DNA of 64,000 bases from a virus (Duplodnaviria > Heunggongvirae > Uroviricota > Caudoviricetes): the IMG/VR virus record IMGVR_UViG_2541047938_000006; one strand, 5' to 3'. The notes beneath the pieces are model-generated. The model saw only the letters and a program-made list of their open reading frames with translations, was not told the origin of the DNA and searched no databases. Positions within the stretch are counted from its first letter, which is position 1. The number at the start of each line of letters is the position of its first letter. Shown here piece by piece: positions 49,897 to 52,284 of this stretch. The position numbers were made by a program, and so were the translations under genes.

Positions 49897-50202
49897 AACG
49901 ACCTCGCGTTTCGATAATTTTTACCTCACCACCTTCAGGTGCTAATCATCGTGGTGGCGAACTGTGCGGGGTTAGCACTACCGGTCGAAACATCCGGCGA
50001 GCCTTTCGGCTCCCCCACACAGCCCGCCATAAATCGCGAATGTGACTGTGCTTAGCGCATAAAAAAACCGCCAGCGCGGTTATGCACCGTTTCGATATCC
50101 GGGGTGCTAATCCCGACGCCAGATTTTGCTGGCGTGCGAAGAATATAATCCCGGATATGTGTTGTCGTCAACATACCTTGAATGTATATAACAAATTTGT
50201 TA

Positions 50203-50543
50203 TGTTTACTCTCATAAACTACATTATCGAATACTACAGTGACGAGGTTGAAGCTGAGATCCTTTCTCTTCCTGAGACCTTACAAGCCAGGTACATTCGG
50301 TACACGGAGAAAATGCGTATTTACGGAGCTAATCTTGGTTCCCCGCATACAGAGGCATTTGGCGACGGTTTGTTTGAAATCCGCCTTAAGGGCTCGGAAG
50401 GCATAGGGCGTGTTTTTTACTGCACGCTAAAAGGAAAGCGAATCATTATGTTGCATAGCTTTGTAAAGAAAACGCAAAAAACTCCACCTGCCGAGCTTAG
50501 AAAAGCTGAAACCAGAATGAAGGAGGTTAAGCATGACTGGTAA
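50203..50543 (+). CDS. HigB/RelE-superfamily toxin (Gp49-like)
   Basis: About 113 aa from ATG at 50203 within ORF 50082..50543; pattern ...FEIRLKGSEGIGRVFYCTLKGKRIIMLHSFVKKTQKTPPAELRKAE typical of Gp49/HigB-like toxins; overlaps downstream HTH gene. Confidence 0.6.
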
Positions 50544-50841
50544 ACGTACCCCACCTACCATGACACACGATGAAATGGTAGAAAAAATGTTGTCTAACCC
50601 CGCAGTAAAAGCAGAATACGACGCCATCGCCGATGAATTCGCACTACTTGATGAAATGCTGGCAGCACGAAAAGAAGCTGGCTTAACCCAGGCTGAAGTT
50701 GCTGAACGTATGGGAACAAAAGCGACTGCGATAACCAGAATGGAAAGCAATCTTGCATCAGGTACAAGCGGCCCATCATTTGCCACACTGAAAAAATTCG
50801 CCCGTGCTACAGGGAAAAAACTCCAGATCCGCTTCGTTTAA
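50533..50841 (+). CDS. XRE-family HTH antitoxin (HigA-like)
   Basis: 102 aa with HTH (GLTQAEVAERMGTKATAITRMES); start overlaps toxin gene end. Confidence 0.65.
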   Translation: MTGKRTPPTMTHDEMVEKMLSNPAVKAEYDAIADEFALLDEMLAARKEAGLTQAEVAERMGTKATAITRMESNLASGTSGPSFATLKKFARATGKKLQIRFV

Positions 50842-50895
50842 CTCTCCACTACCGCGCCGTCATTCTGGCGGCGCTTTACCCCAGAGAAATATCAA

Positions 50896-51140
50896 TCACC
50901 GGATTACCACATCCCACTCCGGCTCCTGCCATCTCAAATCCGGTGAATCATTTCTCTCAGGAATAACCATTACGTCCTTTTCCCTTCGCTCCCTTTCTAT
51001 CGCCATCACAGCCAATGCTGCAACCATGATGTATTTTTGTTCGTCGGTTCCTGTTTCATAACGACGCATGAGGGTAAACTCGGGGCGATCAGTAACCTCA
51101 ATGATTTCGTTAATTTCTTTAATTTCGCGAGGAATATCCA
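50896..51140 (-). CDS. Hypothetical small protein
   Basis: About 81 aa from MDIPREIK with RBS AAGGAG; start codon overlaps start of divergent 51140 gene (CCATGG). Confidence 0.25.
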
Positions 51141-51814
51141 TGGGTTTAGTCTCCTTTGATATCACATGCCCGCACTGTTTAAAAGAGCGAGCTGTTATTG
51201 AGGCATTTGCCGAAAAACAAATTGAAAAAACACCTTTTTTTAACGTCGCTTTTGTATGCAGAAGTTGTCATCGAGGAGGTGTTGCTATTGTTGAAATCCC
51301 ATCAGACCACTATCACGGTCCCATGGCGGAAAGCCAGAAAAAAGACCTCGATATTCTGATTTCAGGAAATAGCCAGTACCGTTTCCGCAAGATCTATCCT
51401 GTGGTCAAAAAAATTACCGCACCAGAATATACACCCCCGGTTGCAGACCGTACTTTTGTTGAGGCAAAAGAGGATTTACAGAGGAGGCGGTACGACACAG
51501 TGGTTATTCTTTGTCGCAGAGTCCTCGATATCTCCACGAAAAAACTGCTCGGCGATGAAGCAGGAAAAGAATCGCTGTCGCAACGTATTCAGATGATTTA
51601 CAAAAAAGGCCTGATCACTGAACAGATGAAGGAATGGGCTCATATTGTACGAATTGATGCCAATAAAGCAGTTCATACAGATGAAGTTTTCACACCAATT
51701 GAGGCAAGCCAGATCCTGAGTTTTACCGAAATGTTTTTAGTCTACGCCTTCACTCTGCCTGCAATGGTGGAAGCCAGACGTGAACAAAAAAGATCAGATT
51801 CAGCCTCTATATGA
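51140..51814 (+). CDS. Zn-ribbon + DUF4145-like protein (moron, candidate defence gene)
   Basis: About 224 aa from ATG 51140 (RBS GAGGAA); CPHC...CRSCH zinc-ribbon-like N-terminus; C-terminal region resembles DUF4145; opposite strand to surrounding operon. Confidence 0.45.
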   Translation: MGLVSFDITCPHCLKERAVIEAFAEKQIEKTPFFNVAFVCRSCHRGGVAIVEIPSDHYHGPMAESQKKDLDILISGNSQYRFRKIYPVVKKITAPEYTPPVADRTFVEAKEDLQRRRYDTVVILCRRVLDISTKKLLGDEAGKESLSQRIQMIYKKGLITEQMKEWAHIVRIDANKAVHTDEVFTPIEASQILSFTEMFLVYAFTLPAMVEARREQKRSDSASI

Positions 51815-51846: not shown

Positions 51847-52284
51847 TCACGACGGGGAGAACATCAATCCCTCTGCACTCCCTCGCCAGAATGCCAGCAC
51901 ACGCTGCATCGTTTCGCTGTTACGGCACTCGCGACAAATTGTGTTGTAGCGTCTGTCGTAGCGCCGTATTTCCCCATCTGGTAATGCCCGGATAAGGTCT
52001 GGATCAACGACAACCGGTTTCTTCGACTTTGCCCTTGAGAGTTTTTTGCGGGCATTTTGCCAGTCCTTACGAGCCTGTTCAGACGGGAATACTCCGTAAC
52101 CGGAATTGTAAACATCACCACTGGCGGCCAGCTCCATGCATAAACGACCGACAGACGCATGACTGACACCAATTTCATCCGATAACTGCCGAATCGTGCC
52201 TCGTCCGTTAAGGCGTACGAATTCCACGATCAGCCCCTTAATTTTTTCCCGCTCTTCTGGTGTAAATGCTCTTGTCATAAGCAC
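51847..52284 (-). CDS. HTH-domain phage protein
   Basis: 145-aa ORF with predicted HTH (IRQLSDEIGVSHASVGRL). Confidence 0.4.
   Translation of the reverse strand: MLMTRAFTPEEREKIKGLIVEFVRLNGRGTIRQLSDEIGVSHASVGRLCMELAASGDVYNSGYGVFPSEQARKDWQNARKKLSRAKSKKPVVVDPDLIRALPDGEIRRYDRRYNTICRECRNSETMQRVLAFWRGSAEGLMFSPS

Follow-up and report, generated by a model that had tools for sequence, protein, structure and literature searches.

The toxin-antitoxin (TA) gene pair that the first-pass annotation placed at 50203-50841 of the window, by which we mean the whole 64,000-nucleotide stretch of tailed-phage DNA analysed here, is real: it consists of two open reading frames on the same strand, both with Pfam matches much stronger than chance would give. 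The right end of that span was correct and the left end was not, as the toxin ATG lies one base further left, at 50202, and the frame that begins at 50203 is a wrong one whose translation contains five stops. The two genes and the elements that accompany them are as follows.

50202-50543, plus strand: toxin gene (Gp49/Tad/HigB-like, predicted RelE fold), 113 aa as annotated and 109 aa from the start position of its clade
50533-50841, plus strand: antitoxin gene (HigA/Ata-like), 102 aa, with N-terminal helices followed by a C-terminal XRE helix-turn-helix (HTH)
50178-50183, plus strand: predicted -35 element TTGAAT of the higBA promoter, its TTG invariant in seven enterobacterial cassettes
50188-50203, no strand assigned: predicted HigA operator, a perfect 16-bp palindrome ATAACAAATTTGTTAT that fills the promoter spacer and overlaps the -10 element
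50201-50206, plus strand: predicted -10 element TATGTT, invariant in the seven cassettes and containing the annotators' toxin ATG (50202-50204)
50214-50216, plus strand: the clade's conserved toxin start position, ATA in the window and ATG in relatives
50520-50526, plus strand: antitoxin Shine-Dalgarno sequence AAGGAGG, within the C-terminal codons of the toxin gene and 6 nt before the antitoxin ATG
50854-50874, plus strand: GC-rich hairpin at the 3' end of the cassette (-19.1 kcal/mol, z=-4.3), present in five of six cassettes

The two reading frames share 11 nt (ATGACTGGTAA), and the toxin-first order with an overlapping XRE-HTH gene, as originally proposed, is upheld by Pfam and by public annotation; the same arrangement of a toxin gene followed by an XRE-HTH antitoxin gene is also found in 71 of 74 related loci. 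A 1.2-kb stretch is 100% identical in Escherichia coli SCU-104 and NCTC9112, where RefSeq names the products 'type II toxin-antitoxin system RelE/ParE family toxin' and 'helix-turn-helix domain-containing protein', and phage PhiR5_2 (PV340546), for which a literature search gave no paper, is 99.8% identical and has the genes named HigB and HigA. As such, the pair is an ordinary, already annotated type of prophage-borne RelE-superfamily TA system. The 153-aa frame from 50082 in the ORF finder list was rejected as the toxin gene, because in the 113-aa form the Pfam domain begins only with residue 19 and the homologues range from 107 to 113 aa, and is regarded as a spurious 5' extension. An antisense frame of 119 aa (50427-50786, minus strand), whose POCJ13 counterpart has 225 aa, runs through the antitoxin gene and is most likely a chance shadow ORF of conserved coding sequence.

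The assignment of the first gene as a Gp49/HigB-like toxin of the RelE fold holds in Pfam, in sequence and profile searches of the PDB, in a fold search and in public annotation. The protein matches Pfam PF05973 Gp49 (DUF891) with E=5e-27 and 94.2 bits, against a cut-off of 23.9, over profile positions 2-90 of 90, a score that places it in PF05973 Gp49 / COG4679 Tad. This was the sole Pfam family at E<=0.01; the toxin gave no match to the classical HigB family PF05015, and with NCBIfam TIGR02683 (upstrm_HI1419 RelE/ParE toxins) it scored 21.8 bits, under the cut-off of 62.85. In a PDB sequence search, toxin and antitoxin alike had the S. pneumoniae HigB-HigA complex 6AF3 as top match, and a profile built from toxin homologues gave E=3.5e-7 against the PDB and added M. 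tuberculosis HigB1 (7NBU/7AWK) at E=0.002. The AlphaFold2 (AF2) model of the toxin (pLDDT 87.7) is composed of beta1, alpha1, alpha2, a four-stranded sheet and a long C-terminal helix (96-112), and Foldseek placed S. pneumoniae HigB (6AF4) first among PDB structures (E=7e-6, TM 0.70), followed by M. tuberculosis HigB1 (7NBU), T. thermophilus RelE (2KHE) and V. cholerae HigB2 (8A0X). The check for a RelE/ParE fold by profile and fold searches (PDB profile search, Foldseek) was therefore positive, for a RelE-type RNase, and the predicted fold is RelE-like with the long C-terminal helix typical of Gp49-type HigBs.

The active sites of S. pneumoniae HigB and M. tuberculosis HigB1 have been defined by mutation (PMC7984235, PMC9098466). 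Residues E59, R61, R70, F87 and K89 of the window toxin align with E66, R68, R73, F90 and K92 of the former, Q92 and K93 align with Q98 and K99 of the latter, and most of the catalytic residues are invariant or near-invariant in 42 homologues. With a dN/dS of 0.03 versus the Salmonella allele, at a saturated dS, the toxin is under strong purifying selection, and we predict that it is a ribosome-dependent mRNA endonuclease.

The antitoxin matches Pfam PF01381 HTH_3 at residues 44-98 (E=4e-11). Its best PDB match is S. pneumoniae HigA (6AF3_B; E=4.9e-7 with a homologue profile), the profile search adds M. tuberculosis HigA2 and HigA3, and a fold search with the antitoxin, whose AF2 model has a pLDDT of 77, returned generic XRE matches alone, at E>0.01. 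When the window is compared with the POCJ13 allele, DNA identity is 96-100% over the HTH half of the antitoxin, drops to 43-66% over 50240-50390 (toxin residues 14-63) and is 60% over 50570-50599 (antitoxin residues 13-22). The allelic divergence of the toxin is concentrated in residues 14-40, and nine of the ten differences between the two antitoxin proteins fall within residues 6-25. In the S. pneumoniae HigBA complex, contacts are made by alpha1 and alpha2 of both proteins and by N-terminal strands (PMC7984235). The paired variable segments look like a specificity-determining interface and match the interface helices of the S. pneumoniae structure, which supports a genuine interacting pair.

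According to sliding identity, the mobile unit spans about 50176-50874, or ~700 bp, its right edge being marked by the hairpin at 50854-50874, which has no T-run and is thus no canonical terminator. The GC content of the cassette is in no way distinctive, and the window contains no tRNA genes. The cassette is rare, with ~30 of 5426 complete E. coli genomes carrying any allele. The flanking genes belong to a lambdoid early-right operon on the minus strand (cro, cII, O, DnaC-like, DUF1627 and DUF977, then Ant, NinB, NinE, DUF1364, RusA and NinH), to which the TA pair on the plus strand is antisense. POCJ13 and JNEC-KY176 combine a divergent toxin allele with the same right-hand neighbours of the pair, and in E. 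coli C5, STEC299 and Salmonella the cassette stands alone in quite different prophage backbones, inserted between a cII-like or YmfL/DUF4222 region and Rha/ASH genes. The proposed 'moron' placement was confirmed in all prophage backbones examined, as the ~700-bp cassette lies on the strand opposite to the flanking phage early genes, a feature seen in 7/7 cases.

Directly to the left of the cassette, a P1/P7 immI-like antisense-RNA module (49950-50171, minus strand) precedes the antirepressor gene.

50148-50096, minus strand: c4-a1b1 targets, RF03163 (46.9 bits; gathering score 46.7)
50135-50061, minus strand: isrK, RF01394 (75.8 bits)
50034-49950, minus strand: C4 antisense RNA, RF01695 (75.1 bits)
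49896-49222, minus strand: ant antirepressor (ORF6N + P22_AR_C)

A promoter-like sequence on the minus strand, TTGACG-18-TATATT (50171 to 50142), fits as the promoter of this module and stands back to back with the higBA promoter; the palindrome TGTTGTCGTCAACA (50160-73) overlaps its -35, and a terminator at 50089-50060 (minus strand) fits as that of IsrK. To the right of the cassette, a small ORF of 81-89 aa (50896-51165, minus strand; phrog_8371, no Pfam match) and a gene for a 224-aa DUF4145 protein (51140-51814, plus strand; phrog_1305), which has a weak match to the defence gene PD-T7-4 (E=0.002), overlap divergently at their 5' ends. Both accompany the TA pair in POCJ13 and JNEC-KY176 and are absent from the Salmonella, C5 and STEC299 contexts. 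Further right (51847-52284, minus strand), the DUF977 protein matches PHROG 142 'Ren-like exclusion protein' with E=4e-40, making its gene a possible further accessory or exclusion gene in this stretch.

In some 40 complete E. coli genomes, O157:H7 and O111 strains among them, nothing is kept but the final 69 nt of the antitoxin gene, an unannotated scar. A single scar locus was examined (L004, from E. coli O157:H7 M1300706002). There the scar at 3501-3569, equivalent to window 50773-50841, adjoins an ORF6N antirepressor gene, a ParD-family antitoxin gene and a 90-aa ORF with no Pfam match take the place of the remaining cassette, and a second XRE-HTH gene of 101 aa, annotated 'HigA family', comes next. 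JNEC-KY176 has an intact TA pair that is followed by the same 'HigA family' HTH gene. The slot looks like an exchange hotspot for TA-like cassettes.

An alignment of seven enterobacterial cassettes revealed an invariant core of TTG(nnn), a 17-bp spacer with ATAAC-N6-GTTAT, TATGTT, seven variable bases and ATG-AAC-TAC, apart from the ATA of the window itself, which is discussed below. For a cross-species set, 80 loci were fetched by a genome-collection scan, and 74 were usable with ATG or GTG at the aligned start. Here the distance from the first base of the TTG to the toxin start codon is 34-36 nt in 58/74 loci, and 47 loci have a TTG 17 bp away from the -10. The toxin start follows the end of a TAnnnT hexamer at 6 nt in 47 loci and at 7 nt in 15, hence in 62/74; the TATGTT of the window ends 7 nt before the codon at 50214. 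In 58/74 loci the palindrome core AAC-N6-GTT precedes the start codon by 23-24 nt, and the exact ATAAC-N6-GTTAT occurs at a single site in the 64-kb window. We infer that HigA binds the 16-bp palindrome, and this putative operator, lying in the spacer and across the -10, is in a position compatible with autorepression. The promoter agrees with the sigma-70 consensus at 8/12 positions and was not called by a consensus scan.

None of the 74 loci has GGAG, GAGG or AGGA before the toxin start, and an SD-like motif precedes the antitoxin start in 68/71. Since the -35 lies ~35 nt and the -10 ~7-12 nt upstream, transcription would start on or next to the toxin codon, and we consider it likely, judging from this layout, that the toxin mRNA is leaderless in the window's toxin clade, with a transcription start predicted at 50213/50214. 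The start codon is GTG in 28/74 related loci, which counts against the leaderless model because GTG on leaderless mRNAs is poorly translated by E. coli. Nor is the layout family-wide: a normal Shine-Dalgarno sequence precedes N15 gp49, and a leader of ~20 nt is present in the Acinetobacter p3ABAYE homologue.

Other candidate signals in this region were rejected. Our first promoter guess, -35 TTGTCG (50162-67) with -10 TATATA (50185-90), is split by a 7-nt insertion in POCJ13, and the nearby palindrome TGTTG-N4-CAACA overlaps the -35 of the minus-strand promoter that fits the adjacent C4/IsrK-ant module. As a plus-strand -10, TATAAT at 50144-49 lacks both a usable -35 and conservation in POCJ13, and it lies inside the minus-strand promoter region. 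TAACAT within the operator, which ends 18 nt before the start in 36 loci, was dismissed as a -10 given that there is no TTG peak at the matching -35 position and that the window has TAACAA instead.

The toxin start position of the clade reads ATA in the window and ATG in the six other enterobacterial cassettes. The allele of strain G1/2, 99.5% identical, also has ATG at the toxin start, and its toxin gene differs from that of the window at two bases only, the ATG/ATA start and a synonymous AGG/CGG, so that ATA represents a recent G-to-A change of the start codon. The single in-frame ATG that remains, at 50202, lies within the -10 hexamer, has no Shine-Dalgarno sequence and is not the start of the clade, because its equivalents in C5, STEC299 and Salmonella are closed by an in-frame stop; in POCJ13 and JNEC-KY176 the upstream ATG is open. 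Of the marks of a leaderless gene, the window retains the -10 spacing and the lack of a Shine-Dalgarno sequence and lacks the 5' AUG. Gene models of the toxin in near-identical genomes have 113 aa (SCU-104), 109 aa (G1/2) or 76 aa (UPEC-245U and PhiR5_2).

Leaderless translation in E. coli requires a 5' AUG, and little toxin would hence be expected from the ATA copy. As the clade start is ATA and the sole other in-frame ATG is inside the -10 hexamer, we lean slightly towards a toxin-attenuated module, in which the window copy would yield little or no toxin and still produce antitoxin. The ATA form is present in nine complete E. coli genomes, 100% identical over the stretch, and in the inducible phage PhiR5_2, and is for this reason not obviously deleterious; the reading frame is otherwise intact. 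Two further loci of the clade, on contigs from metagenome-assembled genomes (MAGs) of Nitrospiraceae and Proteobacteria (L033 and L037), have non-start codons (GCG, GTA) at the conserved toxin start position. It may be that toxin genes of this family lose their start codon repeatedly.

Comparison with known systems puts these features in perspective. The Tad-Ata pair N15 gp49-gp48 is of the same PF05973 family (the window toxin is 43% identical to N15 gp49 over residues 19-109, E=3e-15) and likewise has the toxin gene first in an operon on a temperate phage, with the XRE-HTH antitoxin gene adjoining or overlapping it. N15 gp49 is the protein that gives the Gp49 family its name, and two later papers that cite Dziewit 2007 (PMC2701414, PMC5906591) present gp49/gp48 as a validated stabilising TA of the Tad-Ata group. 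However, N15 gp49 has a normal leader with AGGAGG as Shine-Dalgarno sequence 7 nt before its ATG, whereas the toxin genes of the window's clade have no Shine-Dalgarno sequence and a promoter that abuts the start codon. In addition, N15 is a linear plasmid prophage, for which a stabilising role is obvious, whereas the window prophage is integrated. S. pneumoniae HigBA (6AF3/6AF4) is the best solved-structure match of both proteins and shares the long C-terminal toxin helix, the catalytic E/R/R/F/K and an antitoxin in which N-terminal binding helices are followed by the HTH, but its HigB is only ~20% identical to the window toxin, and it is a chromosomal Gram-positive system whose operator and promoter layout is not comparable.

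M. tuberculosis HigB1 (TAC, 7NBU/7AWK), which cuts mRNA on the ribosome (PMC9098466), is both a profile and a fold match with a conserved FxK..QK catalytic motif, but the TAC system requires a SecB-like chaperone as third gene, which the window lacks. The classical HigBA of plasmid Rts1 and E. coli K-12 (PF05015) is also toxin-first, with a RelE-fold RNase toxin and an XRE antitoxin, yet belongs to another Pfam family and differs in antitoxin architecture and toxin-antitoxin interface (PMC7984235). The A. baumannii HigBA was not taken as direct evidence, since it is probably of a different clade, its toxin gene having 357 bp (PMC5906591) versus 330 bp for the p3ABAYE homologue. With regard to the leaderless layout, few leaderless genes are known in E. 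coli (PMC8630535). Lambda cI transcribed from PRM and PaaR2 of CP-933P resemble the window toxin gene in the absence of a Shine-Dalgarno sequence and in a transcript that starts at the codon, as predicted for the window; they are repressor genes with mapped 5' ends, whereas the window has a toxin gene with a predicted one.

We propose, with a probability of roughly 0.8, that the locus is a self-contained type II TA cassette of the Gp49/Tad-Ata (HigB-like) type inside a lambdoid prophage, antisense to the early-right operon; its toxin mRNA is likely to be leaderless in the clade and, slightly less surely, its toxin output attenuated in the window. The antitoxin would hold the toxin through its N-terminal helices, and the C-terminal XRE domain of the antitoxin dimer would bind the 16-bp promoter palindrome and thereby repress the operon. 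In the clade, the promoter would start transcription at the toxin start codon or no more than 1-2 nt away from it, such that the toxin would be read from a leaderless mRNA without a Shine-Dalgarno sequence and the antitoxin from a strong Shine-Dalgarno sequence, a disparity that would lead to an excess of antitoxin despite the toxin-first order. In the window copy, with its start changed from ATG to ATA, little or no toxin would be made alongside the antitoxin. In a lysogen, where the early-right operon is repressed, the cassette promoter would probably be unopposed, and after induction antiterminated PR transcription would presumably run head-on through the cassette.

A different view of the start codon would leave the pair fully active, namely if the toxin were translated from ATG 50202 and its mRNA began upstream of the proposed -10, with ATA being a harmless Met-to-Ile change at residue 5. 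The frame from 50202 is indeed open, as is that of the upstream ATG in POCJ13 and JNEC-KY176, PGAP models the toxin from this ATG in SCU-104, some upstream transcription could permit its use, and the ATA allele is widespread. However, this ATG without a Shine-Dalgarno sequence sits inside a conserved -10 hexamer, its equivalent is stop-closed in C5, STEC299 and Salmonella, and no conserved promoter is found upstream, where the opposite strand carries the divergent promoter of the ant operon along with its small RNAs. PGAP is not consistent either, giving 113-aa, 109-aa or truncated 76-aa models in near-identical genomes, and we consider this account unlikely. It seems very improbable that the locus is no working TA at all, with a non-toxic Gp49-like protein and an HTH protein that acts as a phage transcriptional regulator. 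The Gp49 family includes non-toxic proteins, M. tuberculosis HigB2 and HigB3 among them (PMC9098466), and in PHROGs the HTH protein is labelled no more than 'transcriptional regulator' and the family of the toxin 'unknown function'. Nevertheless, the catalytic residues missing from HigB2/HigB3 are all present in the window toxin (PMC9098466), and the strong purifying selection on the toxin, the conservation of the two-gene unit and its operator in many species and the co-variation of the interface regions between alleles all speak for a functional pair.

The nature and the purpose of the toxin could also be viewed differently. A ParE-type gyrase poison instead of an mRNA endonuclease might be suspected from the RefSeq name, which is merely 'RelE/ParE family toxin', from the common fold and from the presence of ParE2 low in the Foldseek list of the toxin model. 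Yet ParE2 reaches just E ~0.1 and TM ~0.4, every one of the top sequence and fold matches is an RNase (HigB, HigB1, RelE, HigB2, YafQ, YoeB) and the RNase catalytic residues are conserved, which makes this idea scarcely credible. Alternatively, the main role of the cassette might be abortive-infection defence of the lysogen against other phages instead of addiction to the prophage or selfish persistence. Anti-phage activity of the related TAC (HigB1) systems is reported in a preprint (bioRxiv 10.1101/2024.02.24.581848), accessory genes including those for the Ren-like DUF977 protein and the DUF4145 protein lie nearby, and other prophages have other TA-like cassettes in the same slot. PADLOC, however, gave no defence-system match, with a partial match to the C-terminal 50 residues of NsnC and generic HTH matches alone, and the changed start codon speaks against strong selection for toxin function in the window copy. 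We regard defence as the main role as rather doubtful.

Returning to the favoured reading, the gene pair itself is of little consequence, as it is already named in RefSeq and GenBank. The new details are the probable leaderless layout across the clade and the start-codon-mutated allele, which are of modest interest to TA specialists, and the inconsistent calling of the toxin start as 113, 109 or 76 aa in near-identical genomes calls for caution in annotation. Here we tentatively speculate, at a little less than even odds, that Gp49-type toxins are leaderless throughout a clade spanning Gamma-/Betaproteobacteria and Nitrospirota, with the promoter placed in the antitoxin operator, and that the window represents a toxin-silenced, antitoxin-only allele that spreads with an active phage.

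How the toxin:antitoxin ratio is set in 'reverse' TA operons is stated as not known (PMC5906591), and a leaderless toxin combined with a Shine-Dalgarno-led antitoxin could explain it. This hypothesis is testable, and the ATG and ATA alleles, whose toxin genes differ at two bases, offer a natural pair for a direct test. If true, toxin-first modules would have a built-in means to keep the antitoxin in excess, toxin synthesis could respond to conditions that favour leaderless translation, and the antitoxin-only allele of the window might possibly serve as an anti-addiction or immunity module.
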